This document shows positions 2,002 to 40,011 of a DNA stretch of 64,000 bases, one piece after another. The stretch is from assembly GCA_938003985.1 (NCBI GenBank), contig CALKWZ010000073.1:6295-70294 (forward strand). Direction: 5' to 3'. Below the pieces are notes generated by a model, which saw nothing but the letters and a program-made list of their open reading frames with translations, was not told the DNA's origin and did no database searches. The first letter of the stretch is position 1; every line of letters starts with the position of its first letter. The position numbers and the translations under genes were made by a program. This stretch comes from an uncultured Verrucomicrobiota bacterium. GTDB lineage: Bacteria > Verrucomicrobiota > Kiritimatiellia > CAIQIC01 > Lenti-01.

Positions 2002-2088
2002 ATGGCCGCCGATTGTTGCCCGAAGCCCCCGCCCGCCGCAACCCCAAAATGGTTGCCGGACAGCGGGCTCCGCGCTATCGTGAAGCCC

Positions 2089-3828: not shown

Positions 3829-4400
3829 TCAGTTGAAAATCCCCTTTTTTGCCCGCCCAAGCCCGTTTGCGAGGCATTTTTTTTGGCGATTTATTGCCTC
3901 CGCAGGCCTCTCCGGACCCGCCAAGCGCCTGCCCAGCCCTAAAAACCCCCGATTAAGCAGGAAAACAGGAAACACACAGGAAAACAGGATCAAGCCCCCA
4001 TCCCTTCCTGTTTTCCTTCTAAAATTCCCCGTTTTCACGGGTTTAGGCCGATTTTCGGCCGTTTTCGTGGTTTGTGGCCCGTTTGGGACCTGTTTCGGGC
4101 CCGTTGCGAGCCATTTTCGGCCCTGAAAACGCCCTCCGCGGTCATTTTCGTCCGAAAAATGCCTCCCGAGAGCCTCCTTTTGCGAAGGAGGCATTGCGCG
4201 GCGCCCCGAAACCGGCATAAAGCCTCCTTCGCGCTCGGTTCACGCCCGCCCGCCCGCGCCCTATTCCCCAAGCCCGCAGCCCGTTGCGCCATTGACCCAC
4301 CCCCGCCTTTCCGCTATCCTTTTGCCACTCAGGAAGATTCACCCCGCCACGTAAAACCTCCTTGAAGGAGGGTGAATAAAACGGTTCTGCAAAAGGAAAT
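3829..4400. promoter_or_regulatory. Long repeat-rich noncoding leader (570 bp) upstream of the low-GC cassette
   Basis: No credible ORF. Direct repeats CAGGAAAACAGGA occur at 3958-3970 and 3977-3989. At least six (A/G)TTTTCG(G/T) motifs flanked by CC/GG lie between 4029 and 4153. Perfect 8-bp hairpin GCCTCCTT-ttgcg-AAGGAGGC at 4172-4192 and a 5-bp hairpin CCTCC-ttgaa-GGAGG at 4357-4371. Half-site CCACGTAAAA at 4347-4356. SD AAGGA lies 6 nt before the ATG at 4401. Confidence 0.4.
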
Positions 4401-4787
4401 ATGAAAAGCAACTTAATGATAGCACTCGGCGTAGTCGTTGTATTATCGCTTATGGGAGCAACGGTATTTATTGGTCTGCAATCCATGAGCGCTGCACATG
4501 CGGACATCCCCCCGCCGACAGTTAAGACCATTTCCGATTTTCGCTCCTGGCGCCCTACTTTTACCACTGCGCATCTCATTACTTTCGGCTGGTCTAGCAA
4601 CTACTACATTGACAATGACAATGCGCGATACAGCTCACGCGGGCCGCGCACATATGTTTTTAGTACATCGGGAAAATATCTTGAGACGTCGGACCTTACG
4701 GCCGATATGCGCAGCTTTGCATTTGCCGCCAGCAAAGGCGTAAACATTACTAGGGTTAATATTGACGATATACCAATACCGGAATGA
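4401..4787 (+). CDS. Hypothetical small secreted protein (low-GC islet, ORF-A)
   Basis: 128 aa with signal peptide MKSNLMIALGVVVVLSLMGATVFIGLQSMSAAHA and SD AAGGA upstream. Local GC is about 45% against about 70% background. No recognisable family. Confidence 0.55.
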   Translation: MKSNLMIALGVVVVLSLMGATVFIGLQSMSAAHADIPPPTVKTISDFRSWRPTFTTAHLITFGWSSNYYIDNDNARYSSRGPRTYVFSTSGKYLETSDLTADMRSFAFAASKGVNITRVNIDDIPIPE

Positions 4788-4798
4788 ATAATGCGCAG

Positions 4799-4862
4799 AA
4801 CAAGCGGGTCCAGGGTACCCGCCACAAGGTGTCGGATCCCCTGACCCGTGACGTTCGACGAA
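4799..4862 (+). repeat. 64-bp direct repeat, copy 1 (about 94% identical to 5491-5554)
   Basis: aacaagcgggtccagggtacccgccacaaggtgtcggatcccctgacccgtgacgttcgacgaa, located at the ORF-A/ORF-B junction. Imperfect internal dyad (cgggtccagggtaccc / ggatcccctgacccg). Confidence 0.85.
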
Positions 4863-4866
4863 TAAA

Positions 4867-5553
4867 ATGATTATGCGCACAATGGCACATCACCGATACG
4901 CGGCCATCATAGCTGGTGCATGCAACGCTATTATCGCCACTTCCGCCATGTCCGACGACATTCCTTGGATTACGCTTGAGAACATCAGCCTGAATCCAAC
5001 CAGCTTTTATGTGTCCATCAATGTAACCAATACCTGGTCACCATATTATTTCGCCCTGGAGGCATACGAAGGAGAACCTGTGGGGTCCACCGGCGGGGTT
5101 GAGCGAGCCATCGTATCCGATTGGGTGCAAGGAACGGGCTCGGCCTTGGTCTTGTATGACACCTCTGCCCCCTTGTCTCAATCAGGGCGTACATACAATG
5201 TCGCGGTCACTCCGGATATCGGAGGATTCTACATCCTTGGTCCAAACGAAATCTTTGCCCCTTATCCCTTCTTCAGATCGCCCGACATTTCTTCGATCAT
5301 CGTAACGCCAACAAATGCGGGCCAAGTCTTGGCCATCACATATGGCGAGGGCTTGTATACCAATACGGTCTATGTCTTGAGTGACGAAGCCTCGGGGTTC
5401 ATTCGAGTCAAGGGAACCAACAATATCCCGACAAATGCGGTCATCGAGCGCAGCACGGATCCCATTAGATGGGCCACAAAAAAAATGTCGAACAAGCGGG
5501 TCCAGGGTACCCTCCACAAGGTGTCGGGTCCCCTGACCCGTGACGTGCGATGA
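4867..5553 (+). CDS. Hypothetical secreted protein (low-GC islet, ORF-B); C-terminal 20 aa encoded by repeat copy 2
   Basis: 228 aa with signal-like N-terminus MIMRTMAHHRYAAIIAGACNAIIATSAMS and a beta-rich body. GC about 48%. Tail ...NKRVQGTLHKVSGPLTRDVR. The stop overlaps the next start as ATGA. Confidence 0.55.
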   Translation: MIMRTMAHHRYAAIIAGACNAIIATSAMSDDIPWITLENISLNPTSFYVSINVTNTWSPYYFALEAYEGEPVGSTGGVERAIVSDWVQGTGSALVLYDTSAPLSQSGRTYNVAVTPDIGGFYILGPNEIFAPYPFFRSPDISSIIVTPTNAGQVLAITYGEGLYTNTVYVLSDEASGFIRVKGTNNIPTNAVIERSTDPIRWATKKMSNKRVQGTLHKVSGPLTRDVR

Positions 5554-5554
5554 A
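5491..5554 (+). repeat. 64-bp direct repeat, copy 2
   Basis: aacaagcgggtccagggtaccctccacaaggtgtcgggtcccctgacccgtgacgtgcgatgaa has 4 mismatches to copy 1 and spans the ORF-B end and the ORF-C start. Confidence 0.85.
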
Positions 5555-5972
5555 GAACGACCGGAAACTGCTGCGAAAGGTTGGCGCGCTGGCCATCCTG
5601 CTGGGCGTTTATCCGGCGTTTGTTCTCGGCTACTCGTGGAGTTGCGTGCTGCGGTCGGATTTGCGCGGCGGCCGGCATGGCCCGCTCGATGCCTATCGCC
5701 ATGCTCTCGCCAGCGCGGTGGTGGCGTACACGTTGAACGAGTCGGCGGTTGACCTCATCACTGTCCTGTTTGAATCGAAGGGCAAGGACTCCAATCGCAT
5801 GGACGGCCACAACAACCGCATCGGGGCCCGCCTCGGCGCCCACGCCGATTCATTCCGCGACCTTGAACCCGCCGTGCGGCAACATGTTGGGAACGGCGCC
5901 GTCGCTGCGGTCGAACCGGATCAAATCACCTGGTTGCCGGAGAACAAATGGCGCGATGGTTGGATTTGGTGA
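5550..5972 (+). CDS. Hypothetical membrane-anchored protein (ORF-C)
   Basis: 140 aa with N-terminal TM (VGALAILLGVYPAFVLGY). The ATG is embedded in repeat copy 2. GC is intermediate (about 62%). No recognisable family. Confidence 0.45.
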   Translation: MKNDRKLLRKVGALAILLGVYPAFVLGYSWSCVLRSDLRGGRHGPLDAYRHALASAVVAYTLNESAVDLITVLFESKGKDSNRMDGHNNRIGARLGAHADSFRDLEPAVRQHVGNGAVAAVEPDQITWLPENKWRDGWIW

Positions 5973-6461: not shown

Positions 6462-7604
6462 ATGGCGTTGCGCGTGTTGATCGTACCGGACAAGTTCAAG
6501 GGGACGCTGGCGGCCCCGGCGGCCGCGGCGGCGATCGCCCGCGGCTGGAGCGAAGCGCGGCCGCAGGATGTTCTTGAACTCGTGCCCATGTCCGACGGCG
6601 GCGAGGGCTTCGGCGAATTGCTGGGGACGCGGCTCGGCGCCGCGAGGCGGACCTGCGCCACCGTGGATGCCGCGGGCCGGCCTTGCCGCGCGGAATGGTG
6701 GGCTGCACCGGAGGCCGGCACGGCGATCTTCGAGACTGCGCAGGTGAACGGTCTGGCCCGGCTGCCGCCCGGGCAATTCCACCCCTACCAGCTCGACACG
6801 TTCGGCATCGGCGCGGTGCTGCGCGACGTCGAACAGGCCGGTCTCCGCCGGTTGATCCTCGGCCTGGGCGGCAGCGCGACGAACGACGGCGGCTTCGGCC
6901 TGGCGCGGGCCTTGGGTTGGATTTTCCGCGACGGCGCCGGGGCGGAAATCCGGTCCTGGACCGAGCTGGACCGGTTGGCTGCGGCGGAACCCCCGCCGCG
7001 TCCGCTCGGTTTTGAGCAGATCGTCGTCGCGGTGGACGTCGCAAATCCCCTGCTCGGTCCCACGGGCGCGACGCGGGTCTATGGTCCGCAAAAGGGCCTG
7101 AAGCCGGAAGACCTGGACCGGGCCGAACGCTGCCTCGCCCGGCTGGCCGCAACGCTCAAGCCGCAACAGGGCCCCGCCGCCGAACAGGAACCGGGCGCGG
7201 GCGCCGCCGGCGGACTGGGCTACGGCTTGAAGGCTTTTGTCGGCGGCGCATTCCGGCCCGGCGCGGCCATCTTCGCGGAACTGGCGGGACTGGATGAAAA
7301 GATCCGGCAAGCGGATCTGGTGATCACCGGCGAAGGCGCGCTGGACGAGCAATCGCGGATGGGCAAAGGCACGGGATTCGTCGCGGATCTGGCCGCGCGC
7401 GCAGGCAAGCGCTGCCTGTGCCTGGCGGGGCGGATTTCGCCGTCGTTCCGCGTTCCCTCCCCCGACGGGGTCGTCGGGGGCGCCAAGGACTTCGCGGCGT
7501 GGGCCATCGTGCCCGACGTCGCGACGGAGACCGAATCGCGCGCGCACCCGGCGGAATGTTTGCGGCGCCTGGCGGCCCGCGCGGCGGCGCAAGTTGTTGG
7601 ATAA
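6462..7604 (+). CDS. glxK: Glycerate kinase
   Basis: MALRVLIVPDKFKGTL..., GGEGFG, GGSATNDGGFG and ITGEGALDEQS are conserved glycerate kinase motifs. Confidence 0.85.
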   Translation: MALRVLIVPDKFKGTLAAPAAAAAIARGWSEARPQDVLELVPMSDGGEGFGELLGTRLGAARRTCATVDAAGRPCRAEWWAAPEAGTAIFETAQVNGLARLPPGQFHPYQLDTFGIGAVLRDVEQAGLRRLILGLGGSATNDGGFGLARALGWIFRDGAGAEIRSWTELDRLAAAEPPPRPLGFEQIVVAVDVANPLLGPTGATRVYGPQKGLKPEDLDRAERCLARLAATLKPQQGPAAEQEPGAGAAGGLGYGLKAFVGGAFRPGAAIFAELAGLDEKIRQADLVITGEGALDEQSRMGKGTGFVADLAARAGKRCLCLAGRISPSFRVPSPDGVVGGAKDFAAWAIVPDVATETESRAHPAECLRRLAARAAAQVVG

Positions 7605-7644
7605 GCCCCCCCGCGGCCTTGGCCGTGGGAGGCGAAGTTGGCTC

Positions 7645-7667
7645 CCCCATGGCGCGAGGCCATGGGG
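7645..7667. terminator. GC-rich hairpin between convergent genes (possible bidirectional terminator)
   Basis: Perfect 9-bp stem CCCCATGGC-gcgag-GCCATGGGG lying between the glxK stop (7604) and the giant gene stop (7693). No T-tract. Confidence 0.45.
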
Positions 7668-7692
7668 CCCGCCCGAACGGCTTTGCCGCGGA

Positions 7693-10600
7693 TCAGGGCG
7701 CGCGCTGGACGCCGATGCCGTAGAAGTAGGTGCCGAGTTCGGCGGGGGCGGCGTTGGTGTAGCCGTTGGTCGGGGCGGTGGCGCCGATGTTGCCGACGTG
7801 CTGGGTGAAGGGCCCGGCGACGTTGGTCGCGCGCCAGATCGAATAGACGCGGCCGGTCACGCTGGGCCAGCGGAAAACCAGGTTCGCCGTCGCGGTCTGG
7901 TTGGTGGCGTAGGGCGCCAGCGCCAGCACGGACGAATTGGTTTTCGGATTCGTGCCGGCGATGAATTCGTCGTAGTTGCTCCGGCCGTCGCCATCGTCGT
8001 CGCCCGCGGGCACGCCGTTGGTCGCGCCGCTGAAATAGGTGCTTTCGTACACGTCCGGCATGCCGTCGCCGTCGCTGTCGGCGTCCGGATCGGTCTGCAC
8101 GCCCGTCACGATCACGTCGTCGAGCGCGATGTTGCTCGTCACCTTGTTCCAGGTGAACCGCAGCTGCGTCGCGGATTCGGACAGATCGAAGGCGTAGGTC
8201 GTACCGACGTTCGACGGGTTGGTGACCACGCCCACCGTCGCCCAGTTCCCGCCGACGTACTGCGCCACCTCGAAGGTGCCCGTCCCCGCCGTCGTGACCG
8301 CCCGCATCCAGAACGAGACGTTCGTCGCGCCGAAGAACGTCGGACTGGCGATGGCGTCGCCGTCGCTGTCGAATTTGACCGACGGCGCCGCCCGGCCGTA
8401 GTAGGTGGCGGGATAGTTCGTGGTGACGCCGCTGAACGTCCAGCCCGCGGGCACGGCGGGCGTGACGTCGAAGGGCTCGTCGATCAGCGTGACGGAATTC
8501 GTGTCCGGCTCGGCCACGTAGGTCGCGGCGAAGGAGTTGGTCGTGCCGTTGGTCGTGGCCGTCGCGACGTCGGCCGGCGCGATCCAGCCCGTCGCCGCGC
8601 CGAACGACACCGTGTGCGCGCCGGCGGTCAGGCCGGTGGCGGCGGCGCCGCTGGCGCGCCACGCGCCGCCGTCCACGCGCCATTGCGCGCCGGCGGCGAC
8701 GGCCTCGGCGGGCTGCAGCGTGACGGACAGGGCGCCGGTCGTGGGCGGCGCCGCCCCCGCCTGCCCCTTGAGCTGGATCTCGTCCAGGTAGTAGAAATCG
8801 TTGGTGTTGTTGGCGCTCGCCGCGTCGAAGAAGACCACGCGCGCCATGATCTGCGTGCGGACGTCGGCGATGGCCAGCACGTACGGGGTGCCCTGCGGCT
8901 GCCGGTTGGTGTCGACCAGCGTCCCGTACTCCAGCTGCAGGTTGCTCAGGCCGTCCGCGATCTGCGTGCCGATGGCCGACGGCGACCACGTCGCGCCGCC
9001 GTCGTAGCTGACGGACACGTGCAGGTCGTCGCCGCTGTCCGGTCCGTTGGCCGCGAACGGGATCGTCAGCGTCACGTTCGTATAGCCGCTGATGTCCACG
9101 TTGCCCAGGACCACCGCCGGATTGACCGCCCCGTTCGTGGACCCGCGCAGGCGCACCGCGCTTGCGCCGGACAGCACCTTGTCCGCGTTCGTCGCCGCGG
9201 CCGCGCCGAAATCTTCGTTGGTCGCCAGCCCGCTGCCGTTCAGGGGCACGTAGCTCCAGCTCCAGGGATGCACGTCCGCGCCGTCGAAACCCTGCGACGC
9301 GATGCAATCCGCGCCGGCGGGCTGCAGGACGTAGGTCCGCGTCACGGTGCCCGTCGCGCCGGAGACGACCGTCACGTTGGTCGCGGCGGGCGTAGCGTAG
9401 CCCGCAACGGGGCCGAAGGTCACGGTATAGCCACCGGCGGCCAGATTGGTCGTGGCGCCCGCGGCGATCCAGCTCGCGCCGCCGTCGAGGCTCCACTGCG
9501 CGCTCGCCGGCGTCAGGTTCACCGTCAGCGCCCCGGGCAGGTCGGCGTAGGTCTTCGTGAAGGACGCCGCCTCGCCCGCGGACAACGCGTAGTTGGTCGC
9601 CGCCGGCGCGGCATAGCCGCTCACCGCCAGGAAGCTGATCGTGTGCGTCTTGACGGTCAGATCCTGGACGGTGGCCCCGCTCTCGTTCCAGTTGGTGCCG
9701 CCGTCCACGCTCCACGCGGCCCCGGCGGCCACGGCGCCGGCAGGAGCCAGCGCGACCGTGATCGAGCCGGGCAGCGCCGTGTAGCTGTAGGACCGGACCA
9801 CGTTGCTGTTGGCGTAGACGGTCGTGTAGCCCGTATCCGGCACCACGTAATTCGAGACGGTCTTGAAGGTGAAATACTGGCGGCCGGCGAGCAGATCATA
9901 GGCCGTGGCGCCGCTGTCGTACCAGGTGTTGCCGCCATCCACGCTCCACTGCGCGCCCGCGGACACGGCCGCCGCCGGACTCAGGTTCACCGTCAGGTCG
10001 CCCACCAGCGCGACGTAGGCGCCCGTGATGGAAACCGCGGCGCCGGCGATGGTCACGTTGGACGCGGCGGGCGTCGTATGGCTGTCGACGTCCTGGAACG
10101 TCACCGCGTAGGTGCCGTTGGTCAGGTTGGAGAGCGTGGTGCCGCTCGTGCGCCAGACGGCGCCGCCGTCCACGCTCCAGCGGCCGTCGGCCACGGCCGT
10201 GGCCGGCGTCAGCGTCACGGTCAGCGAGCCGGAGGCCGAGGCATAGACGGAGGTGAAGACGTTGGTCGCGCCCGCGGTCACCACGACGGACGTCGCGGCC
10301 GGCGTGAGATACCCGTCCACGGCGCCGAAGGAAACCTGGTAGGTGCCCGCATTGAGGCCCGTGCGCACGCTGCCGCTGACGTTCGTGGTGCCGGCGACGA
10401 TCCACCGCCCCGCGTTCGTCGCGGCCGCCGGCGAGAGCACGACGCGGATGGCGCCGGGCACGGCCGAATCGCCGAGGAACTGCATGGCCTTGGTCATCAC
10501 GGTCGCGCGGGTTTCCGCGTTGGTGATGGTTTCGAACGGGAAGCCCATCACGACGGTGCGGTAGGTGGCGTTGCTGTACTGGACGATCGCGCCGCTGGTG

Positions 10601-13600
10601 CCCGCGGCGCTCGCGCCGTACACCGCGGCGGTGACGCCGCCGCTGCCGACGCGCAGCACGTCGGGATAGTTCGCCGCGTAGACCTGCGGCAGCAGGTTCG
10701 TGTAGTTGAAGGCGATGGAGACGCCGTTGAGGAAGCCGCCGGCCGTGCCCGTGACCTGGCCGGTGGCGCCGCTGTCGGCCGAATAGACCGCGCGCAGCAC
10801 GTTGGTGAAGAAATTCACGTCCGCGGCCGAGGACACCCCCGCCCGGCCCAAATCCCAGCCGATTTCCGCGCCGGAAACGAACAGCCGGCCGCCGGCGTTC
10901 AGGTAGGCCGTCGCGGCGGTCTGTTCGGCGGAGCCGAAGGTCTCGTCCACCGTGGATTCCTCGCCCAGGATCCAGACGACCTTGGCGTAGTTCGTCAGCA
11001 GCGCCGACGAGACGAGCGCGGCGCCGACGTAGTCGAAGGTCTGCCCCGCCGCCGCCAGCGCGAGGCCGTGTTCCTTGACGTAGTCGAAGTGGTTGATCAT
11101 CCGCGGCCGCACCAGCGTCACGTTGCCGTTGAGGCCGTTGGCGAAGTAGCGCGTCGGCGCCAGGCCCGCGTCGTTGCGCGTGAAGCCGTCCACGACGAGC
11201 ACGCCCGCCTTGGCGCCGCCGGAAGTCACGCGCACGCCGGCCACGGCGGAATCGAACGACTCGCCGCCGGCGTTCGTCGCGCAGACCTTGAAGAAGATCG
11301 TCGCGCCCGCGTTCAGGTTGGTGACCACCTTGTTCGTGGCGCTCGCGCCGGAGACCGGGATGGGATTGCCGAAACCCTGGCCGTCCGTGGAGGTATAGAG
11401 GACGAAGCCCTGCGGCAAGCCGCCGCTGGCGGCGTCGCGCGCGGGCATGGCCCACGACACCGTGACCTGGCCGCTGCCGGAATTGACCGCCTTGAGGTCC
11501 GTCGGCCGATCGGGCGCGTTGGTGTTGACGATGCCGCTGGCGTAGTAGCCGGCCAGGTGCTTGATCAGGCCGCGCGCGGTCGCGCGCGCCAGCCATTCGC
11601 GGCCGGCGGGCAGCTTCAGCACCGCGCAGTCGTTGGAGTTGTCGTGGAACGCCACTTCGTTGATCGTGGTGTCCATCTTGAGGAACACGCTGGAATTGTA
11701 GATTTCGCCGTAGGTGCTGCCGTAGAGATAGCCGGTGCGCGTGCTCCAGCTGGGGATCACGCTGTTCGTGCCGGCGCGCAGGTCGACGTTGCACTGGCGG
11801 GCCAGCGCGGCGGCGAGGTTGGTCTGCGCGGCGTAAAGGGACGGATAGCCGGACTGGATGCGCGTGTCGTAGAGGCCGATGGCGCCGCGGCCGGTGCCGT
11901 CGCCGGCGTTGGAGTGGAAGCCCACGTAGACCCGCTGCCAGCGCGCCGCGTCGTTGGAGCGGCACATGTAGGCCGCCATGCGCGCGGGCTGGCCGATGTT
12001 GTCGCTGCGGTCGTCGTAGCCGGCCAGGTCGTAGAGCGTGGCGTCCATCCCCTGCCCCATGGACTTGATGGTCCAGAAGCGGCCGGATTCTAGTTCCGAT
12101 TCGAAGCCCGAGATCCCGGCCGTGCCGCGCGCGACGTTGCCGCGCCCGTTGCCGAAGCGGATGGCGTCGGCGAAGACGGACGAGCCCTCGGCGCCGCCGG
12201 GCGCGTAGTTGCCGATGTTCACGCAGCCGTTGGTGCCGGCTTCGAAGTGGTAGTTGCCCAGCCAGACCCAGCCGCAGCCGACGTCGCGGTGGTTCACGCG
12301 CACGTCCGTCACGCCGCCGGAATGGTACACGCGGTACAGCTGGTTGGCGCGGTCGGAACCGTGGCGGACCCAGGTGTAGACCGGATATTCGCCGGCTTCG
12401 GGCAGATTCGGCCGGTAGGAGGCCCACGACGTCGAGCCGTTGGTGCTGATCGCGGCGTAGCGGTACGGCACGGCGTCGCCGGCGTTGCCGTAATAGATGG
12501 ATTGCGTCGAGTTGTACCACGTGCCGCCGAAGGTGACCTTGCCGCGGGCCGTCTGGTTGGTGTCCATGTTGTCGAGCACCACTTCGTTCGTCTGGTAGCC
12601 CAGCGGCCGGATCGGGACGACCGTGCCGCCGGCCTTCCAAACCGCTTCCGCGAACCGGTTCATCTGGTCGACGTTGCCCATGTCCTCGTTCACGGCGAAC
12701 AGCAGCGGGCGTTCGGGGATCCACGCGGTCAAGGCCTCGTTCGCGCCGAAGCCGTGGCCGGCGCTGGTGTAGACCACCACGCCGGACAACGGACCGGTCG
12801 GCTGGGCCGCCGCGACCTGCGGCAGGCCGGTTTCGTCCGGCGTGCCCAGCGGTTCTTCGCCGCCGCCGGTTTCGCCTTCGCCCCCGCCCGTCTCGCCGCC
12901 GCCTTCTTCCGCCGCGGCGCCCATCGTGCCTTTGGTCAGGATCGTGCCGTTGTAGCCGACGGCCACGAACTGGTCTTCGGCATAGCTGATGCCGCGCAGG
13001 AGATTCGTCGTGCCGGAGGTTTCCGCCTCCCAGGTCAGGCCGTCGGTGGAACTCCAGATCGACCCGTTGGCGCCCGCCGCCTTGAACAGGCCCGAGCAGT
13101 AGGCCGAGCGGTAGAAATAGACGCTGTTGGTGGTGAAGCTCCAGGAAAGCCCGTCGGAGGAACGCAGGATCCGCTGGTTGCCCACGGACACGTAGTAGCC
13201 GTTGCCGTACGTCACGTCGGAAAGATACTGGGAGGTGCCGGACGTGCGCGGCGTCCAGCTCAGGCCGTTGCTCGACGTCAGGATCAGGCCGCTCTGGCCG
13301 ACGATGACGAAGAGCGGGGATTCCGCGGACGCTTCGTTCGTGTCGCCCGCGTTCACGAAGTCCATGCCGTAGCCCACGCCCTGCAGCGACGCGTTCGTGC
13401 CCGACGCCACCGCCGACCAGGTCGCGCCGTCGGTCGAGCGCACGATCGCGCCGCCGTCGCCGCAGGCCACGTACGTGCCGTTGCCGTAGGCCACGCCGCG
13501 GAACAGCGCGTTCGTCGGCGAGGTCCGCGACGTCCAGTCGAGGCCGTTGGTGGAGGTGACGATGGCGCCGCTTTCGCCGACGACCACCCACAGCGGGCCG

Positions 13601-15288
13601 TCGCCGTTCACGTTCATCAGCAGGCCGCTCTTGCCGCTGCTGCGGGCGGTCCAGTCGATGCCGTTGGTGGAGGTGTAGAGCGCCCCGCCGGCCCCGCTGG
13701 CCACGTGCAGGCCGGCGCGACTGCCCACGCCGTAGAAATTCGCCGTATGGGCGGACACGCGGTTCGTCCAGGGCGCGGTCGCCGAGGAACCGCCGGTCTC
13801 GCCGGGATCCGGATCGGGCGGCGGCGCCGCGCCCGCGCCGAACTTCTCGTCGATCAGCTGCCAGAGTTCCGTCTTGCCGGTGCCTTGCGTGAGGTTCCAG
13901 ATGCCGATGCCGCCCATCCCCTTCGTATTGGACAGGTCGTACTTCATCCCGAGGCTGGCGACGTCGTCGTAGAAGCACTGGTAGGCGGTGCTGTTGGAGA
14001 CGTAGACGTAGTACGGCACGCTGCCGTTGTTGTCCCATTTCTTGCCGTACTTGGCGGCTTCCGATTCGCAGGCGCCGTAGGTCAGCGCGGCGGAATAGGC
14101 GCTGCCGAGGCTGGCGGCGCCGAGGTTCGTGCTGGCGGCGGCCCAGCGGCGCCCGTAGTACGGCACGCCCAGCATCAGTTTGTTCGTCGCGATGCCCTTC
14201 CCCAAATAGTAGTTCATGGAGTAGTTCACCGAGCACCACGAGCTGGCGCCGATCCACTGCGCGCTGCTGGTCAGCGGCGCCACCGGGCCCGGCGTGCCGC
14301 TGCCGGAATAGTAGTAGTCGTAGCCCATGACGATCGCGTAATCCATGCCGAAGGCGGCGTAGTTGGACACCGCGAAGTTCGCGTACCAATCCACCGACGG
14401 CAGCGCGATCGAGATCTCGTAGTTCGGATTCGCCGCGTGGAACCGCGTCGTCAGGTTGCTCATGAAGGTCGTCAGCGCCGCCGTCGCGCCCGTCCACGAG
14501 CCCACGCCTTCGAAATCGATGTTCACCCCGTCGCCGTCGCCGGGCAGCGTGCGGTTGGTCATCGCGATCAGCAGCTGGGTGATCAGGTTGCTGCACGCGA
14601 CGGAATTCGTCAGGAACCGGTGCGTGGCGGCGTCGCCGAACAGCGTCGCCGTCAGCACGACCTTCACGCCGTTGCTGTGCGCCCACTCCACCACGGGCGA
14701 CGTGCCCCACGAGCCCATGCTGTCGGCGTTGCCGTTGGTGGAATTCACCGCATAGGAGAAGTAGGCGATGGTCGTCAGGTTCGTGTACTGGTAGTTCTGG
14801 ATATCCGTCATCGTCGCCCAGGACGGATGCCAGCCCAGCACGCGCTTGCCCGCGGCGATGGCCTTGGGCGCCGCCAGCGGCTGGACGGTCGGCTTGGGCT
14901 GCCGGGACGGCTTGGCGGTCGGATCGAAATCGGTCGGCGTTTCGCCTTGGTGTTCCTCGAAGGCGATCTGGAGCGGGCTCTTCCAGTCGGCCAAATATTC
15001 CGGCACGACGAAGGCGGCCTGCTCGGCCTCCTCTTCCGTGGCGCCCATTTCAAGCGCGGTCGCTTTCGCCAGGCTGCGCGCGCGCGCCACGGCGGGCGAC
15101 GTTTCGGCGACGTCCGGAATTTCCGGCAGAGCCACGTCCACGCCCGTTTCGTCCCAGGCATCTTGCCCCGCCACCTGGTTTTCGGTACCGGCCGGGACCG
15201 GTTCGTCCAGACCTTCCGCCCGCCCGCCGGCCAGCGTTAGACAAAAGAACAGCCCGCCCAATACGCCCACGTGAATGCGCCGATTCAT
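7693..15288 (-). CDS. Giant secreted multidomain protein (2531 aa) with GH18 chitinase-like domain
   Basis: Start MNRRIHVGVLGGLFFCLTLAGGRAEG (signal peptide) at 15288..15286. Domains in order: GH18-like (DGVNIDFEG); BNR/Ycf48-like beta-propeller (STNGLDWTSRTS, SSDGLSWSF, STDGLTWEAETSG); Amidase_3-like (VVVYTSAGHGFGANEA ... GFHSNAG ... AFHDNS); FN3; ThuA/GATase1-like; about eight Ig-like repeats (G..TV.LSPA.A..GA.WSVDGG..W); choice-of-anchor-like module; TSP3 Ca-binding repeats (DPDADSDGDGMPD, GDDDGDGRSNYDE); conserved C-terminal tail. The upstream in-frame extension to 15471 was rejected. Confidence 0.85.
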   Translation of the reverse strand: MNRRIHVGVLGGLFFCLTLAGGRAEGLDEPVPAGTENQVAGQDAWDETGVDVALPEIPDVAETSPAVARARSLAKATALEMGATEEEAEQAAFVVPEYLADWKSPLQIAFEEHQGETPTDFDPTAKPSRQPKPTVQPLAAPKAIAAGKRVLGWHPSWATMTDIQNYQYTNLTTIAYFSYAVNSTNGNADSMGSWGTSPVVEWAHSNGVKVVLTATLFGDAATHRFLTNSVACSNLITQLLIAMTNRTLPGDGDGVNIDFEGVGSWTGATAALTTFMSNLTTRFHAANPNYEISIALPSVDWYANFAVSNYAAFGMDYAIVMGYDYYYSGSGTPGPVAPLTSSAQWIGASSWCSVNYSMNYYLGKGIATNKLMLGVPYYGRRWAAASTNLGAASLGSAYSAALTYGACESEAAKYGKKWDNNGSVPYYVYVSNSTAYQCFYDDVASLGMKYDLSNTKGMGGIGIWNLTQGTGKTELWQLIDEKFGAGAAPPPDPDPGETGGSSATAPWTNRVSAHTANFYGVGSRAGLHVASGAGGALYTSTNGIDWTARSSGKSGLLMNVNGDGPLWVVVGESGAIVTSTNGLDWTSRTSPTNALFRGVAYGNGTYVACGDGGAIVRSTDGATWSAVASGTNASLQGVGYGMDFVNAGDTNEASAESPLFVIVGQSGLILTSSNGLSWTPRTSGTSQYLSDVTYGNGYYVSVGNQRILRSSDGLSWSFTTNSVYFYRSAYCSGLFKAAGANGSIWSSTDGLTWEAETSGTTNLLRGISYAEDQFVAVGYNGTILTKGTMGAAAEEGGGETGGGEGETGGGEEPLGTPDETGLPQVAAAQPTGPLSGVVVYTSAGHGFGANEALTAWIPERPLLFAVNEDMGNVDQMNRFAEAVWKAGGTVVPIRPLGYQTNEVVLDNMDTNQTARGKVTFGGTWYNSTQSIYYGNAGDAVPYRYAAISTNGSTSWASYRPNLPEAGEYPVYTWVRHGSDRANQLYRVYHSGGVTDVRVNHRDVGCGWVWLGNYHFEAGTNGCVNIGNYAPGGAEGSSVFADAIRFGNGRGNVARGTAGISGFESELESGRFWTIKSMGQGMDATLYDLAGYDDRSDNIGQPARMAAYMCRSNDAARWQRVYVGFHSNAGDGTGRGAIGLYDTRIQSGYPSLYAAQTNLAAALARQCNVDLRAGTNSVIPSWSTRTGYLYGSTYGEIYNSSVFLKMDTTINEVAFHDNSNDCAVLKLPAGREWLARATARGLIKHLAGYYASGIVNTNAPDRPTDLKAVNSGSGQVTVSWAMPARDAASGGLPQGFVLYTSTDGQGFGNPIPVSGASATNKVVTNLNAGATIFFKVCATNAGGESFDSAVAGVRVTSGGAKAGVLVVDGFTRNDAGLAPTRYFANGLNGNVTLVRPRMINHFDYVKEHGLALAAAGQTFDYVGAALVSSALLTNYAKVVWILGEESTVDETFGSAEQTAATAYLNAGGRLFVSGAEIGWDLGRAGVSSAADVNFFTNVLRAVYSADSGATGQVTGTAGGFLNGVSIAFNYTNLLPQVYAANYPDVLRVGSGGVTAAVYGASAAGTSGAIVQYSNATYRTVVMGFPFETITNAETRATVMTKAMQFLGDSAVPGAIRVVLSPAAATNAGRWIVAGTTNVSGSVRTGLNAGTYQVSFGAVDGYLTPAATSVVVTAGATNVFTSVYASASGSLTVTLTPATAVADGRWSVDGGAVWRTSGTTLSNLTNGTYAVTFQDVDSHTTPAASNVTIAGAAVSITGAYVALVGDLTVNLSPAAAVSAGAQWSVDGGNTWYDSGATAYDLLAGRQYFTFKTVSNYVVPDTGYTTVYANSNVVRSYSYTALPGSITVALAPAGAVAAGAAWSVDGGTNWNESGATVQDLTVKTHTISFLAVSGYAAPAATNYALSAGEAASFTKTYADLPGALTVNLTPASAQWSLDGGASWIAAGATTNLAAGGYTVTFGPVAGYATPAATNVTVVSGATGTVTRTYVLQPAGADCIASQGFDGADVHPWSWSYVPLNGSGLATNEDFGAAAATNADKVLSGASAVRLRGSTNGAVNPAVVLGNVDISGYTNVTLTIPFAANGPDSGDDLHVSVSYDGGATWSPSAIGTQIADGLSNLQLEYGTLVDTNRQPQGTPYVLAIADVRTQIMARVVFFDAASANNTNDFYYLDEIQLKGQAGAAPPTTGALSVTLQPAEAVAAGAQWRVDGGAWRASGAAATGLTAGAHTVSFGAATGWIAPADVATATTNGTTNSFAATYVAEPDTNSVTLIDEPFDVTPAVPAGWTFSGVTTNYPATYYGRAAPSVKFDSDGDAIASPTFFGATNVSFWMRAVTTAGTGTFEVAQYVGGNWATVGVVTNPSNVGTTYAFDLSESATQLRFTWNKVTSNIALDDVIVTGVQTDPDADSDGDGMPDVYESTYFSGATNGVPAGDDDGDGRSNYDEFIAGTNPKTNSSVLALAPYATNQTATANLVFRWPSVTGRVYSIWRATNVAGPFTQHVGNIGATAPTNGYTNAAPAELGTYFYGIGVQRAP

Positions 15289-15506
15289 AGTAACGAGAAT
15301 CGTCACAAAGCCCGGTTGCGGCGTCAAGCGCGGGGTGTCCTGAAATCGACATTTGGTTTTTGTTAAATCTGGGCCAGAAGCCCATTTTATGTTTGCCAAC
15401 CGGCGGCGTGCAGAGCGAGGATTTCCCGCGTGATGGCGGCACGCCAGGTCGGGATCGGGTTTCCCGGCCATTCACGGCGAGCCGGCATTGCCCTAACGGA
15501 GGTCGC
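15289..15506. promoter_or_regulatory. Divergent intergenic control region between the two giant genes
   Basis: 218-bp AT-richer spacer (tttggtttttgttaaatctgggcc...). GGAGG SD lies 6 nt before the ATG at 15507. A weak sigma54-like GGCACG-N4-GTCG element was not pursued. Confidence 0.3.
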
Positions 15507-18500
15507 ATGAGTGCTCGGTGGGTTCGCTCGTTGCTGGTGCTGTTCGTTCTCTTCTCCTTCGGTCTTTCTTCGGCCTTCGCGGCCAAGAGCAAAGCCAAAC
15601 CCAAGGCCCAGGAAGCTCCGCCTCCGGCCGCCGTCGAAACGGAAACCGCCGGCCTGCCTCCGGCCGAATTGACCGTGGGCTTCCAGGTCCGCGATTCCGA
15701 AACGGAAGGCATCGGCGACCTGCTCGTGCCGGTTTGGAATCCCGGCGGCACCGGTCTGCTGTTCCTCAATCCCCGCACGGCCATCGTCGACCACGACGAA
15801 CAGGAAGGCAACCTCGGCCTCGGCTATCGCCAACTCCTGCCCAAGCTGAACACGATCCTCGGCGCCAACCTTTACTACGACTACCGCGACACCGGCTCGT
15901 TCAACTACGACCAGTGGGGCTTCGGCCTGGAACTGCTCAGCCCCTGGGTCGACGCGCGCGCGAACTACTACGATCCCGACGACAAGCGCAACGTGGTCGC
16001 CAGCGAAACCCAGACCACCGTCAGCCAGACCGTCCGCACGTCGTCCGCATGGCGCGATCCGTACGCCGAAGACCACTACGTCCTCCAGGACTTCGTCACG
16101 ACCCGCACCCTGACCACGTCCACCAGCACCAAGACCTTCGAGCAATACGAGCAGGCCCTCGGCGGCTACGACTGGGAAATCGGCCTGCGCCTGCCCATCC
16201 GGTCCGACCACGTCGAAGCCCGGCTGTTCGGCGGCTACTACGACTTCGACCGCGATTTCGGCGACGATGCCCGCGGCTGGAAAACCCGCGCCGAACTGCG
16301 CGTGCGCAACAGCCTCTTCCTGGATGCCGGTCTGTACGAGAACGAAGACCTGACCGGCAGCGACTGGTTCGCCGGCGCGCGCTGGTCCACCCCGCTGGAT
16401 CTCGGCCAACTGGCCCGCGGCCGCAATCCGTTCGGATCCGCCAAGGCGCGCCTGCGCGGCGAACCCCGCGCCGCTTCCGCCCGCTTGACCGAAATGGTCC
16501 TGCGCGATCCGCAGGTCCGCCTCGAGCAGTCCAAGTTCCTCGAAAACAAAGCCCTCCAGCAGGACGGCTCCAGCTCCAGCCAAAGTTCCTCCGGCCAAAC
16601 CTTCGTGCTGCTGCCCGACGTGCAGTTCGTGCACGGCGATGCCGGCGTGTCCGGCGACGGCACCGCGGAGCGGCCCTTCACGACCATCCAGCAGGGCGCC
16701 AACGCCGTCTACGGCTCGCGCAACGTCTACGTCTACAACGCGTCCGGCCCCTACAACGAGAACGTCGTCCTGCTGCCGGACACCACCCTCTGGGGCAGCG
16801 GCAGCCTGATCCTCGGCTACGGCGGCAAGACGTTCGGCAGCGGCATCCACCCCATCGTCGACGGCCTCAGCCGCGGCCCCGCCATCACCATGGCCGACCG
16901 CACCACCGTCCGCGGCATGGGCGTCCGCAACACGGAGCAAGGCGGTCCCGACCAAATGGTCATCCTCCCCGGCCTCCCCACCTACAACGTCCGCCGCGTC
17001 GGCATCTACGGCGCCGACGCCACCGACCTGACCATCCTCGACAGCATCGCCATGGGCAACGAGATCGGCGTCCTGCTGGGCCGGGTCGGCGATTTCCGCC
17101 TGACCTACCGCAATAACCAGGCCTCGCAAAACGACGTCGACGGCTTGCAGATCTGGGCCGATGGCGCCGGCGGCGGCCTCTTCGACGCGGACGTTTCCGG
17201 CAGTTCCTTCGATCAAAACGGCAATTCCGGCCTGTTGCTTTCCGCCAACGGCTATGGCGGTTCCTTCGTCCGCATCCGCGATTCGCAGGCCTTGGACAAC
17301 CCCGGCGCCGGCTTTCAATCGATCCAGCAGAACTCGTCGTTCGCCATGGCCCTGCTGTCCGGCCTGAACGCCCACGGCAACACCATCGGCATCCAGAGCG
17401 TGCAGGACAACGTCGATTTCGCCCTCGCCAACATTTCCGACAGCGCCGCGAACGACAATCTGGCGTTCGGCATCCAGAACGTCCAGAATGCCGGCTTCGT
17501 TTCCGTCGGCGTCATCGGCATGCCGAACGGGCTGGACACGCTGGCGTCGAGCCTGGCTTCGCTGATCGGGTTCCCGCTCCCGCCCGAAGTCGGCATGTTC
17601 TTGGCCCCCTCCGGCCCCGTCACGGCCAACGGCAACGGCGTCTTCGGCGTGCAGTCCATCATCACGGCCGATTCCGGCCTGGCGTTGGGAGCGCTCTTCG
17701 ACATCACCGCCAACAACAACGGCGTCTTCGGCATCCAGGCGATCAACCAGAGCCCCAACGGCGTCGCCGTCGGCCTGGCCGGTTCGTCCCAGAACCTGCG
17801 GGAAATCCTGCGGCTCGGCGACAGCGTCGCCGGACTCTTCGGCCTCGATCTGCCGCTGACCATCCCCGGCGGCGGTCACATGGAAGCGAACGGCAACGGC
17901 GCCGGCGGCTTCATGATGCAGACCATCGGCGACAGCGCCGCCATCAATGCCGTGGTCGGCCTGGAAACCCTCGGCAACGGCGGCTTCGGCACGATGCTGG
18001 GTACGTATTCCGACAGCCTCTCCATCGCCGCCCTGGCCCGCCTGTACACGGCGGAAAACGTCGGCGCCGGCCTCCTGTTCGACGTCTACGGCCTCGACGT
18101 CGGGGCCATCGGCCTCCTGGCCGACGTCTTCGCCGACGTCAACGGCGACAGCGGCATCACCGCCTCCGTCGACAGCCCCAACGGCTTCGCCGTCCTCGCG
18201 TCCCTCTCCACCGACGTCCTGCGCCCCCTGGGCGATTCCCTGGGCGAGATGTTCCTCGGCGCGCCGCTCGACGTCCCCGGCGCCCCCTTCGGTCCCGTGG
18301 TGGCGTCCGGCAACCTCGGCAACGGCTTCACCGCCAACGTCACCGGCAACGACTTCGCGGCCGCCGTCCTGCTCGACACCTGGGCCGACGGCAACTCCAA
18401 CAACGGGTTCGATCTCACCGTCGCCTCCGCCAACGGTCCCTCGATCGCCGCCATCCTCTCCAGCGACGTCGTGCTGAACCTGGTCAACGACATGGGCGTG

Positions 18501-29196: not shown

Positions 29197-29324
29197 GGCA
29201 TCATCCTACCCCCGCCGCGGACGCAGGCCAACCCGAAACGAAACGGTTGACCAGAATCCCCTTTTTTCGGTCGCAGAGGCTTTAATCAAATCGTTATCTT
29301 CTTCCTTACCCCGCGAGGCATTCC

Positions 29325-39937: not shown

Positions 39938-40011
39938 GCCCCGGTAGCTCAGTTGGACAGAGCGGCGGTTTCCTAAACCGTAGGTCGGAGGTTCGATCCC
40001 TCTCCGGGGTG
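39938..40011 (+). tRNA. tRNA-Arg (anticodon CCT)
   Basis: Cloverleaf folded by hand: acceptor GCCCCGG/CCGGGGT, D-arm GCTC/GAGC, anticodon stem GCGGT/ACCGT with loop TTCCTAA, T-arm GGAGG-TTCGATC-CCTCT. CCA is not encoded. Confidence 0.8.

Follow-up and report, generated by a model that had tools for sequence, protein, structure and literature searches.

The window (the whole analysed stretch of 64,000 nucleotides), from a Kiritimatiellia-type bacterium, carries on its minus strand a genuine gene at positions 7693–15288 coding for a secreted protein of 2531 amino acids, the features of which are collected in Table 1. The minus-strand frame was free of stops from 7693 to 15471; the ATG at 15288 gives the 2531-aa product with the N-terminus MNRRIHVGVLGGLFFCLTLAGGRAEG, and the 61 codons upstream of it would enter the AT-richer divergent intergenic region. 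Both the n-region and the h-region typical of a Sec signal peptide are recognizable in this N-terminus, as the original prediction of a secreted protein implied, and the mature protein has a mass of ~260 kDa and a pI of 4.7. The GC content at third codon positions (GC3) was 0.92, as usual for genuine genes in this window with 68% GC, against 0.55–0.59 at codon positions 1 and 2, and the dN/dS ratios calculated against six orthologues were in the range of 0.09–0.30 in each module tested. A terminator and promoter scan of the region 3' of the gene (7400–7900) found none.

A look-up of the exact protein sequence found no recorded copy, and the closest genome match was at 92% (UBA2281). The GH18 module, the propeller and the 790-aa cassette described below were found together in one stop-free frame in ~35 species-level genomes with 45–92% identity, and, since the one-frame fusion recurs in this way, the three-part fusion is no assembly accident. 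An artefact, be it through chimeric assembly or through the fusion or mis-calling of ORFs that high-GC DNA invites (several long spurious ORFs overlap the gene, and some metagenomic orthologues were called as several proteins, namely P0001/P0249 and P0122/P0022/P0006), is effectively refuted by the identical colinear single frame in these independent genomes and by dN/dS far under 1, with the codon-position contrast and the existence of homologues for every module pointing the same way. A Pfam scan of the whole protein recognized only GH18, Golvesin_C, a marginal fn3 and DUF6242, NCBIfam gave no useful match, and rescanning with Pfam segment by segment added marginal matches only.

Table 1. 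Position of the 2531-aa protein gene, its modules and the adjacent intergenic region in the window
Feature	Position	Strand	Evidence
Whole gene, 2531 codons + stop	7693..15288	-	GC3 0.92; dN/dS 0.09–0.30
Divergent intergenic region, 218 bp, AT-richer, between the gene and the IAT-like gene	15289..15506		
Signal peptide, aa 1–26 (MNRRIHVGVLGGLFFCLTLAGGRAEG), Sec type, without lipobox	15211..15288	-	By inspection of sequence
N-terminal linker, aa 27–145, acidic, Pro-rich	14854..15210	-	Without Pfam match
GH18 catalytic module, aa 146–485; D253-G-V-N256-I-D258-F-E260, M321-G-Y323-D324, W464	13834..14853	-	Pfam, PDB sequence matches, residue conservation
Putative beta-propeller region, aa 506–790, six Asp-box-like motifs	12919..13773	-	DUF6242, motif positions
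Amidase_3 fold, N-terminal half, aa 828–905; putative Zn ligands H845 (GHG), E868 (NED)	12574..12807	-	Profile, AF2 model, conservation
Golvesin_C/CBM6-35-like beta-sandwich, aa 906–1050, within the amidase	12139..12573	-	Pfam 82 bits; 6f2p match; Foldseek
Amidase_3 fold, C-terminal half, aa 1051–1255; putative Zn ligand H1125 (FHSNA), putative catalytic E1211 (INEVAFHDN)	11524..12138	-	Profile, AF2 model, conservation
FN3, aa 1258–1354	11227..11517	-	Pfam 23.7 bits
GATase1-fold domain without triad, aa 1355–1607, GH42 middle-domain-like	10468..11226	-	AF2 pLDDT 82, Foldseek, weak homologue matches
Five tandem Ig-like repeats, ~76 aa each, aa 1612–1987	9328..10455	-	Self-HMM, 85–109 bits each
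Module X1, aa 1988–2175, unclassified	8764..9327	-	Without Pfam or PDB sequence match
Sixth Ig-like repeat, aa 2185–2259	8512..8736	-	Self-HMM, 96.9 bits
Module X2, aa 2262–2395, unclassified	8104..8505	-	Without Pfam or PDB sequence match
Two TSP3-type Asp-rich Ca-binding-like motifs, aa 2396–2447 (DSDGDGMPD, DDDGDGRSN)	7948..8103	-	TSP3_bac
C-terminal ~84-aa domain, end ...GTYFYGIGVQRAP	7696..7947	-	Comparison of family C-termini

The predicted GH18 module was upheld by the PF00704 model, which covered aa 152–468 with 102 bits against a gathering score of 29.6 (profile positions 4–316 of 317), and by the presence of the catalytic Glu (E260). Together with D258, which completes the catalytic Asp-x-Glu pair, it was invariant in 114 homologues, in which Tyr and Asp of the MxYD motif (Y323, D324) and W464 were invariant or nearly so; both sets of residues were retained in all 35 of the 35 fused loci. 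The middle Asp of the classical chitinase motif DxxDxDxE is missing, its place at position 256 being taken by Asn. The same residue occupies this position in 107 of the 114 subfamily members, and in the fused loci it is either Asn or Cys, never Asp; judging from this conservation, the replacement is characteristic of the subfamily, 4wiw included, and not a local loss. Because of this substitution (Asn here, Cys in relatives), the activity of the module may deviate from that of classical chitinases. By sequence comparison it is placed in the YaaH/SleL/YdhD-like subfamily: the PDB sequences matched included 4wiw, chitinases, chitotriosidase, YdhD 3cz8 and SleL 4s3j, and the closest named relatives are called YaaH/YdhD in the source databases, the nearest relatives overall being uncharacterised T9SS-secreted proteins of Bacteroidota and Ignavibacteria.

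The second hydrolase module was less accessible to standard annotation. PF01520 (Amidase_3) failed to match the intact sequence and, after excision of the insert, reached 14.5 bits against a gathering score of 27; the amidase is overlooked by Pfam because a Golvesin_C domain of ~145 aa splits its catalytic domain. Among the relatives, 25 of 29 matched the same model at E ≤ 0.01 (best 2.3e-7). The AF2 model of the module had a pLDDT of 91.5 and a pTM of 0.92, and its strong Foldseek matches, counted after setting aside those to the insert (CBMs), were mainly Amidase_3 enzymes (Ami1/Rv3717, CwlD, AmiB, AmiC2, CwlV, LytH, PlyPSA and AmiA; E 6e-7 to 4e-4, probability 1.0). Two family profiles searched against PDB sequences likewise found only Amidase_3 amidases, plus 6f2p for the insert. 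Residue pairing with 7agm, 7agl and 1jwq equated H845 with the His of GHG, H1125 with the His of SIHAN and E1211 with the Glu of LVE(L/V)G, and aligned E868 with the motif Glu of the same three structures; the reference residues are those which we take to be the metal ligands of this family. None of the four residues varied, either among 117 proteins or in the complete genome loci (77 of 77), and H1215 and D1220 in the C-terminal half are family-invariant as well. These data support a Zn-dependent Amidase_3-fold amidase with a complete putative active site. The Amidase_3-like domain of the original prediction thus fell below the Pfam threshold in this protein, but fold, profiles, relatives and intact putative Zn and catalytic residues agree on it. 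The outcomes named beforehand as refuting the prediction, missing HMM support for GH18 or Amidase_3 and substituted catalytic residues, were looked for, and the prediction passed.

The domain nested in the amidase was absent from the original description. It matched PF25275 (Golvesin_C) with 82 bits and the C-terminal module of xanthan lyase 6f2p (residues 906–1035) with 31% identity at 3e-16, and Foldseek placed it with 6f2p, the xanthan-binding MiXBM (7ehg), CBM6 and CBM35, its closest relatives being xanthan binders and not peptidoglycan binders. Carbohydrate binding is documented for proteins with a Golvesin_C-type/xanthan-binding domain (PMC10049358), and Bacteroides proteins with a CBM6-CBM35-CBM36_like_2 domain, the type present in xanthan lyase and golvesin, are lectins (Cbeg4/5; PMC9166713). 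The label CBM84 was considered for the insert and dropped, as CBM84 belongs to the GH9 xanthanase PspXan9 (6fhj) and not to 6f2p (PMC10049358).

The amidase is followed by FN3, which scored 23.7 bits with PF00041 against a gathering score of 25 (31–44 bits in homologues at the same position, up to 43.7), and by a domain predicted as GATase1/ThuA-like, for which the fold was recovered and the catalytic triad was not. Its AF2 model (pLDDT 82) was closest in Foldseek to the middle domain of GH42, with further matches to STM3548, the N-terminal domain of IFT52 and genuine GATases, PabA 8rp0 among them. The Cys-His-Glu triad is missing: no invariant Cys or His was present among 117 and 24 relatives, and the nucleophile-elbow position, judged on the module sequences, is Ser or Thr. 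The module has 14 invariant polar and aromatic residues of its own. No Pfam model was significant on the window sequence, the ThuA model (PF06283) included, which matched 4 of 24 relatives (best E 0.0015); the homologues gave weak matches to ThuA, DMFA2_C, DUF4350, GLMA_2nd and DUF4159, and a profile of the module found nothing among PDB sequences.

The remaining modules were mostly of the repeat type. The propeller, like FN3 and the TSP3 motifs, was detectable as had been predicted, but all three matches were marginal. In the propeller segment, six motifs of the form S-[ST]-[DN]-G-x-x-W, shorter than the Asp-box S-x-D-x-G-x-T-W, are spaced by 37–54 aa between aa 540 and 753, and DUF6242 reached 30.9 bits (gathering score 29, E 3e-7) when the segment was scanned alone; it had no BNR or BNR_2 match in Pfam and matched no sequence of a solved structure, and a precomputed BNR_2 match was present in one relative (P0138). 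Instead of the about eight Ig-like repeats first proposed, the self-HMM detected six, five in tandem and one separate, none of which matched a Pfam family. Modules X1 and X2 showed no similarity to each other, and the C-terminal 547 aa had nothing meaningful among PDB sequences, with one chance match at E 0.28. TSP3_bac (PF18884) scored 21.3 bits against a gathering score of 25 (E 2.5e-4) over two D-x-D-x-D-G motifs, and 33.6 bits in the homologue P0016. The ~84-aa C-terminal domain, which gave a weak match to Amuc_1099_fam (E 0.028), is of a kind that ends many proteins of the cassette family. This domain, X1 and X2 were not in the module list of the original prediction.

A surface-tethered protein had also been proposed, and this part found no support: a lipobox, a transmembrane segment, PEP-CTERM and a T9SS sorting domain were all looked for and none was found. 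Signal peptides occur across the cassette family, the N-termini being hydrophobic in 81 of 111 proteins and having a lipobox in only four. The divergently transcribed neighbor is indeed inverse-autotransporter-like (IAT_beta, 40 bits), but a functional link to it found no backing, the neighbor being missing in the single orthologue for which the upstream genes were inspected. Since no conserved neighbors were present around five relatives or within the window, operon-based inference, including this link, was abandoned. The gene neighborhood gave no pathway context for the 2531-aa protein.

The new point of the analysis is the combination of the amidase with its CBM-like insert, FN3 and the GATase1-like domain, which forms a conserved cassette of 790 aa. 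It was present in at least 464 species genomes of Verrucomicrobiota, Kiritimatiellia, Lentisphaerae, Planctomycetota and Sumerlaeota, and the matches at E ≤ 1e-30 formed 680 clusters at 50% identity. Relatives of 2000–3400 aa occur, some genomes hold two GH18-propeller-cassette copies, and in other neighborhoods the cassette lies as a stand-alone gene amid housekeeping genes. P0001 (89% identical) was rejected as an example of a stand-alone cassette; it is probably a fragmented orthologue, because the C-terminal fragment P0249 is apparently located on the same contig. Literature searches (golvesin and amidase; Kiritimatiellia peptidoglycan amidase; Kiritimatiellota GH18) returned no paper on the family. 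In spite of its wide distribution, the protein family formed by the cassette core is unstudied.

Taken together, the protein has two hydrolase modules with complete predicted catalytic residues, a YaaH/SleL/YdhD-type GH18 and a Zn-dependent Amidase_3-fold module, and the polysaccharide or cell-wall targeting multi-enzyme of the original prediction is still the best reading. By analogy with what the related families do, we suggest, with a probability of roughly 50%, a Sec-exported modular enzyme that degrades a peptide-substituted GlcNAc-containing glycan extracellularly, the likeliest substrate being the peptidoglycan of other bacteria or cell-wall debris. The amidase would strip MurNAc of its stem peptides, so that a bare chitin-like glycan is left, and GH18 would then cut the peptide-free chain. 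The inserted CBM, the propeller, the six Ig-like repeats, X1/X2 and the TSP3 Ca-binding motifs might attach the enzyme to an insoluble substrate or space it there, and the GATase1-like domain might serve in oligomerisation or ligand binding by analogy with GH42, GH164 and GlmA.

Kiritimatiellia are polysaccharide degraders, and a non-peptidoglycan glycan would therefore fit equally well. In that case GH18 would act as a chitinase or endo-beta-N-acetylglucosaminidase on chitin, glycoproteins or exopolysaccharide, the amidase on another amide (an acyl or peptide group on an amino sugar), and the insert would target an acidic heteropolysaccharide. The insert with its xanthan-binding relatives points in this direction, as do the GATase1-like domain, whose nearest counterparts are accessory glycosidase domains (GH42, GH164, Op5Man5 and the exo-beta-D-glucosaminidase GlmA), the chitinases and chitotriosidase among the top PDB sequence matches of GH18, and the T9SS-secreted GH18 homologues of non-sporulating Bacteroidota. 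However, all solved or named relatives of the amidase module are MurNAc-L-Ala amidases, and GH18 belongs with the YaaH/YdhD-named DGxNxDxE proteins and not with the classical DGxDxDxE chitinases, which leaves this substrate rather unlikely.

A housekeeping role is more doubtful still. The cassette could be a cell-separation or wall-remodelling amidase of the PVC group acting on its own peptidoglycan, the window protein being an elaborated paralogue, and its wide distribution (the 464 or more genomes and 680 representatives), stand-alone occurrence amid housekeeping genes, strong purifying selection and invariant catalytic residues are all consistent with this. Features known from regulated division amidases are an AMIN or SPOR-type targeting domain and an auto-inhibitory helix. 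General Pfam scans of the present protein turned up none of these, and with its ~260 kDa, its lectin-type insert, its TSP3 motifs and its six Ig-like repeats it looks more like an enzyme of the cell surface or the outside medium than like a division amidase of the periplasm; the two copies in some genomes fit substrate diversification better than a core division role. Very improbable is an adhesin with pseudo-enzyme modules that merely bind their targets: the many repeat and binding-type modules, the adjoining inverse-autotransporter-like gene and the Asn in the GH18 motif would suit it, but the predicted catalytic and metal-binding residues are all present and invariant in hundreds of relatives, position 256 is normally Asn or Cys in the subfamily, and the neighbor was missing in the single orthologue inspected upstream.

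If extracellular degradation of peptidoglycan is indeed the function, Kiritimatiellia and related PVC bacteria, which are common in digesters, sediments and guts, would own a single secreted machine to dismantle peptidoglycan-like material and with it a route for recycling bacterial necromass, a process of which, to our knowledge, very little has been characterised apart from Firmicutes and predatory bacteria. If the substrate were ordinary chitin or peptidoglycan without special features, the protein would be merely another large modular hydrolase. Recognition of the cassette provides a concrete, testable assignment for a large unannotated family: because the split catalytic domain is missed by standard annotation, hundreds of proteins called "hypothetical" or "FN3 domain-containing" probably hide a complete Zn-amidase site. 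As a natural example of a binding domain nested inside a cell-wall hydrolase it is also of interest for lysin engineering. A wider proposal, tentative and in our estimate somewhat doubtful, is that the cassette constitutes an enzyme family, so far undescribed, that has its own role in the PVC superphylum and Sumerlaeota, either as the main peptidoglycan amidase of these bacteria or as an amidase for another glycoconjugate with the GATase1-like domain as a second ligand-binding or catalytic site; the GH18 fusions of Kiritimatiellia would then be a self-contained system that strips peptides and then cuts the glycan.

Among known systems, the proposed pair of activities would find its parallel in Bacillus spores, with the Amidase_3 enzyme CwlD and the GH18 enzyme SleL/YaaH. 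CwlD takes the peptides off cortex muramic acid. According to Table 1 of PMC10653849 (citing Lambert & Popham 2008), SleL (YaaH) is an N-acetylglucosaminidase acting on spore cortex fragments. The GH18 module resembles the YaaH/SleL/YdhD-type enzymes in sequence family, in Asp-x-Glu, in MxYD and in the C-terminal Trp, albeit with low identity to the solved structures (E 1e-6 to 1e-17), and the middle Asp is replaced both in this module (DGVNIDFE) and in the D. hafniense GH18 4wiw (DGVVIDFE). Unlike these enzymes, the window protein has neither LysM domains nor a sporulation context, and its host belongs to the PVC group. Staphylococcal Atl/AtlE also combines, in one secreted polypeptide, a peptide-stripping amidase, an N-acetylglucosaminidase-type module and wall-binding repeats, but it consists of Amidase_2 and GH73 in the reversed domain order relative to Amidase_3-fold and GH18, and it differs in its binding repeats and phylum; the window protein gave no sign of an Atl/AtlE-style proteolytic processing or own-wall role.

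The fold of the GATase1-like domain is common to ThuA, DUF4350, DUF4159 and IFT52-GIFT, and is that of the GH42 middle/trimerisation domain (5xb7, 4ucf), GH164 6t5o and the second domain of GlmA 6jow (E 8e-10 to 1e-4, query TM ~0.5–0.58); in the glycosidases such a domain accompanies a TIM-barrel glycosidase, whereas here it accompanies an amidase. The Golvesin_C-type domains of 6f2p, MiXBM 7ehg and Cbeg4/5 are appended, in contrast to the insert, which is nested inside a catalytic domain. With the Amidase_3 enzymes (CwlV 1jwq, CwlD 7rag, Ami1/Rv3717 4m6g/7agl, AmiB 3ne8/8c0j) the amidase module shares the fold, the His-Glu-His Zn site and the catalytic Glu in the motifs GHG, NE(D), (F/I)H(S/A)N and (I/L)xE(V/L)(A/G). 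It differs from them in being split after the second strand by ~190 aa, made up of the Golvesin_C/CBM-like sandwich and a conserved segment of ~45 aa, and in being always followed by FN3 and then by the GATase1-fold domain.

The minus-strand frame without stops spans 7693-15471 in the ORF analysis of the window, and a Sec-type signal peptide (MNRRIHVGVLGGLFFCLTLAGGRAEG), read from the sequence and lacking a lipobox, begins at ATG 15288. The 61 codons 5' of this ATG were not protein-like and would run into the AT-richer stretch between this gene and its divergent neighbour, whose signal peptide has its own ATG near 15507; therefore, the coordinates of the original prediction, 7693-15288 (minus strand) for 2531 aa, represent the best gene model. 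The mature protein would be acidic (computed pI 4.7) with a mass of ~260 kDa. GC content at codon positions 1, 2 and 3 was 0.59, 0.55 and 0.92, as is typical of real genes in this window (65-72% GC), and dN/dS against six orthologous loci was 0.09-0.30, alike in the GH18 plus propeller, amidase and FN3 plus GATase-like parts, demonstrating that purifying selection acts on all modules. The Pfam scan of the whole protein recognized GH18 (102 bits), Golvesin_C (82 bits), fn3 slightly below its gathering score (23.7 bits) and, weakly, DUF6242, which rose to 30.9 bits (gathering score 29) when its segment was scanned alone; TSP3_bac reached 21.3 bits in the segment-wise scan, and the NCBIfam scan of the whole protein gave nothing useful. 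The "about eight" Ig-like repeats counted initially proved to be too many, since a self-built HMM found exactly six, at 85-109 bits each.

Module map of the 2531-aa protein (residues numbered from ATG 15288)
Feature	Residues (aa)	Position in window
Signal peptide	1-26	
Acidic, Pro-rich linker	27-145	
GH18	146-485	
Asp-box-like propeller region	506-790	
Amidase_3 fold, N-terminal half	828-905	
Golvesin_C insert	906-1050	
Amidase_3 fold, C-terminal half	1051-1255	
FN3	1258-1354	
GATase1-fold domain	1355-1607	10468-11226
Five Ig-like repeats, ~76 aa each	1612-1987	
Unclassified module X1	1988-2175	
Sixth Ig-like repeat	2185-2259	
Unclassified module X2	2262-2395	
Two TSP3-type motifs	2396-2447	
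C-terminal domain	2448-2531	7696-7947 (-)

The core of the protein is a cassette of ~790 aa, in which an Amidase_3 fold split by the Golvesin_C insert is followed by FN3 and a GATase1-like domain. A search with aa 825-1612 collected 604 homologues, nearly all colinear with the full 788-aa query at ~42% identity, and 99 positions were at least 97% conserved in an alignment of 117 cassette sequences, including H845 (GHG), E868 (NED), H1125 (FHSNA), E1211 (INEVAFHDN), H1215 and D1220. Apart from xanthan lyase 6f2p, matched through the insert (3e-16), the amidase family profile (A1) found only N-acetylmuramoyl-L-alanine amidases among all PDB sequences (Ami1 7agl/7agm, CwlD 7rag, AmiB 3ne8, AmiA 8c2o and CwlV 1jwq), as did the insert-free profile of the same family (A3), whose alignment paired GHG with the GH of CwlV and Ami1, FHSNA with SIHAN/SIHAD, and IIEVAFHDN..D with LLEVGYLSN/LVELGNMKN..D. 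The AlphaFold2 model of aa 828-1255 was confident (pLDDT 91.5, pTM 0.92), and its Foldseek matches in the PDB fell into two sets: the insert matched 6f2p (1e-9, 31% identity), the xanthan-binding module MiXBM 7ehg, CBM6 and CBM35, while most of the remaining strong matches were Amidase_3 enzymes with a probability of 1.0 (Ami1/Rv3717, CwlD, AmiB, AmiC2, CwlV, LytH, PlyPSA, AmiA and Cwp6). The TM-scores were 0.41-0.52 relative to the targets and only 0.2-0.26 relative to the query, because the latter has two domains. Thus, the Amidase_3 assignment of the original prediction held for fold, profile matches and residues, but the Pfam HMM itself gave only 14.5 bits in this protein, and only with the insert cut out; 25 of the 29 A1 members matched it at E ≤ 0.01 (best 2.3e-7). 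Pfam misses the domain because ~190 residues are inserted after the second strand; they comprise the Golvesin_C sandwich and a 45-aa conserved segment with invariant S1060, E1067 and W1072. The six amidase positions, which include the Zn-site residues that had been left to be checked, were kept as H-E-H-E-H-D in all 77 complete genome loci recovered (the other three being truncated), and the module is predicted to be a Zn amidase of the Amidase_3 fold with a full catalytic set.

The GATase1-like module was matched by no Pfam model in the segment-wise scan, and its relatives gave weak matches only to same-fold families (ThuA, DMFA2_C, DUF4350, GLMA_2nd, DUF4159). The model of aa 1352-1612 (pLDDT 82, loop aa 1372-1401 poorly modelled) matched in Foldseek the middle domain of GH42 enzymes, which serves trimerisation (5xb7, 8e-10; also 4ucf, 5e9a and 3tts), and its counterparts in a beta-1,2-glucosyltransferase, Op5Man5, GH164 and the exo-beta-D-glucosaminidase GlmA; STM3548 and the IFT52 N-terminal domain came next, and true glutamine amidotransferases were weaker. 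Among aligned relatives there was no invariant Cys or His, and the nucleophile-elbow position, judged from the module sequences, is Ser or Thr. "GATase1/ThuA-like" was correct as a fold class, and the domain is predicted not to be a glutamine amidotransferase. It has 14 invariant polar and aromatic residues, among them R1371, N1399, Y1403, D1419, Y1434, W1439, D1543, Y1557 and E1586; beside this set stand the three invariant residues of the 45-aa segment (aa 1051-1096, window 12001-12138).

In the PDB search, solved GH18 proteins could be aligned to ~275 residues of the GH18 module, with the D. hafniense protein 4wiw ranking ahead of chitinases, chitotriosidase, B. subtilis YdhD (3cz8) and SleL (4s3j), a cortex-lytic enzyme. 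The great majority of homologues with 40-50% identity came from Bacteroidota, Ignavibacteria and Chlorobi, were secreted and had T9SS sorting domains; they were named "spore germination protein YaaH" or "YdhD" at source. In 114 aligned homologues G254, D258, E260, M321, G322, Y323 and W464 were invariant and D324 nearly so, while position 256, where the classical DxxDxDxE has its middle Asp, was Asn in 107; D258, E260, Y323, D324 and W464 were kept in 35 of 35 loci with GH18 fused to the cassette, where position 256 was Asn or Cys, never Asp. This conservation, which includes the catalytic Glu in question (E260), indicates that the acid/base machinery is intact and that Asn256 marks the subfamily and is no sign of decay. 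In Table 1 of PMC10653849 (its references 34-36), SleL/YaaH is given as an N-acetylglucosaminidase acting on spore-cortex fragments.

Of 1.84 billion representatives at 50% identity that were scored with the cassette, 680 reached E ≤ 1e-30 and 2110 reached E ≤ 1e-10; several relatives were 2000-3400 aa long. According to a pattern scan with one genome per species, at least 464 genomes of Kiritimatiellia, Verrucomicrobiota (Opitutia, Limisphaerales, Pedosphaera, Luteolibacter and an Akkermansia sp. MAG), Lentisphaerae, Planctomycetota and Sumerlaeota carry a relative; the closest among the matches listed was 92% identical (UBA2281). Module-wise tblastn placed GH18 and the propeller immediately upstream of the cassette in loci L007-L045, L050 and L051 (45-92% identity) and found the cassette alone in more distant genomes. 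In most of the fused loci all modules lay in a single frame, 1700 to more than 2400 codons long without a stop, so that the fusion is conserved across a lineage, with a differing C-terminal elaboration. Within a cassette family of wide distribution, the window protein thus represents the "giant" form of the Kiritimatiellia type. Two related genomes hold two fused genes each, L015 and L044 in CAYNSH01 (amidase-module identity to the window protein, 86 and 54%) and L043 and L045 in CAZAYP01. Typical stand-alone members had 850-1000 aa and a signal peptide; a lipobox was rare and a PEP-CTERM anchor absent. They often ended in a ~80-aa domain with a ...FYR... motif, similar to ...YFYGIGVQRAP in the window protein. 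This shared C-terminal domain, with ...(F/Y)(F/Y)(R/G)(V/I)... near the last residues, occurs in many stand-alone proteins among homologues P0003-P0046; it is neither a PEP-CTERM signal nor a T9SS domain and may serve for sorting or anchoring in this lineage specifically.

As read from the sequence and the models, the protein combines an export signal, two complete hydrolase active sites and a lectin-type domain nested in the amidase. Peptidoglycan hydrolases are the only characterised relatives of the two catalytic modules: MurNAc-L-Ala amidases for one and, besides chitinases, the SleL/YaaH N-acetylglucosaminidase for the other. The two chemistries are complementary: the amidase would strip the stem peptides, leaving a bare GlcNAc-MurNAc glycan that GH18 could cleave. 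In the Bacillus spore cortex, the Amidase_3 enzyme CwlD takes peptides off muramic acid, and cortex-lytic enzymes, including SleL, act on the glycan thus modified. These relatives, chemistries and the cortex parallel favour extracellular degradation of what is presumably peptidoglycan from other cells or debris, with a probability of roughly one half. The resemblance of the insert to xanthan lyase and the glycosidase type of the accessory domain speak for a non-peptidoglycan glycan or glycoconjugate as the substrate, which, set beside the relatives of the catalytic modules, appears rather doubtful. The same activities directed at the bacterium's own wall have a small chance. With both catalytic sets conserved, a binding-only adhesin is very improbable, and an artefact, given the codon pattern and selection on every module, is scarcely conceivable.

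The neighbours are housekeeping genes (a convergent glycerate kinase, methyltransferase, MgtE, ABC ATPase and ketol-acid reductoisomerase), with citrate synthase, Lnt, ABC exporters and a sigma-54 activator farther off. The divergent gene was indeed inverse-autotransporter-like, with a partial IAT_beta match of 40 bits (profile positions 61-176 of 279); it encodes ~1408 aa at 15507-19733 (+) with the signal peptide MSARWVRSLLVLFVLFSF..., the rest has no Pfam match, and the start of the mechanically called ORF, TTG 15360, probably lies too far upstream. The neighbours differed at the orthologue in the Kiritimatiellia MAG GCA_050176815.1, and four other family members had no shared neighbourhood; hence, the gene context neither points to a function nor supports a partnership with the IAT-like gene. 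Elsewhere in the window, a low-GC islet at ~3700-5600 (GC 0.55 against 0.65-0.72 elsewhere), possibly acquired horizontally, contains the small ORFs 4401-4787 (+) and 4867-5553 (+) with GC3 of only 0.5-0.6, the second without a Pfam match. At 268-3828, ORFs of more than 1000 codons each overlap on opposite strands, 268-3693 (-) with GC3 0.78 and no Pfam match and 607-3828 (+) with GC3 0.80. Another large modular hydrolase, of 1164 aa, is encoded at 29286-32780 (+), with HYDIN/ASH-type Ig-like domains and an Amidohydro_1/3 metal-dependent hydrolase domain, and a 717-aa protein at 49310-51463 (-), adjoining the apolipoprotein N-acyltransferase gene 47672-49309, weakly matches the gingipain-type Peptidase_C25 (22.1 bits, slightly below the gathering score). 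The sole RNA gene found by ARAGORN and Rfam was tRNA-Arg(CCT) at 39938-40013 (+).

Every fold in the protein is already known. A full-text literature search found no description of the cassette, i.e., Amidase_3 split by a CBM6/35-like domain, FN3 and a triad-less GATase1-fold domain, nor of its fusion to a YaaH-like GH18 and propeller, and in databases the relatives are named "hypothetical protein", "fibronectin type III domain-containing protein" or "glycosyl hydrolase family 18 protein". The outcome is a testable annotation for a large, overlooked PVC protein family rather than a new principle. The nearest functional analogue would be a bifunctional autolysin such as staphylococcal Atl, which joins an amidase to a glucosaminidase, although the enzyme families of Atl are unrelated to those of the window protein.
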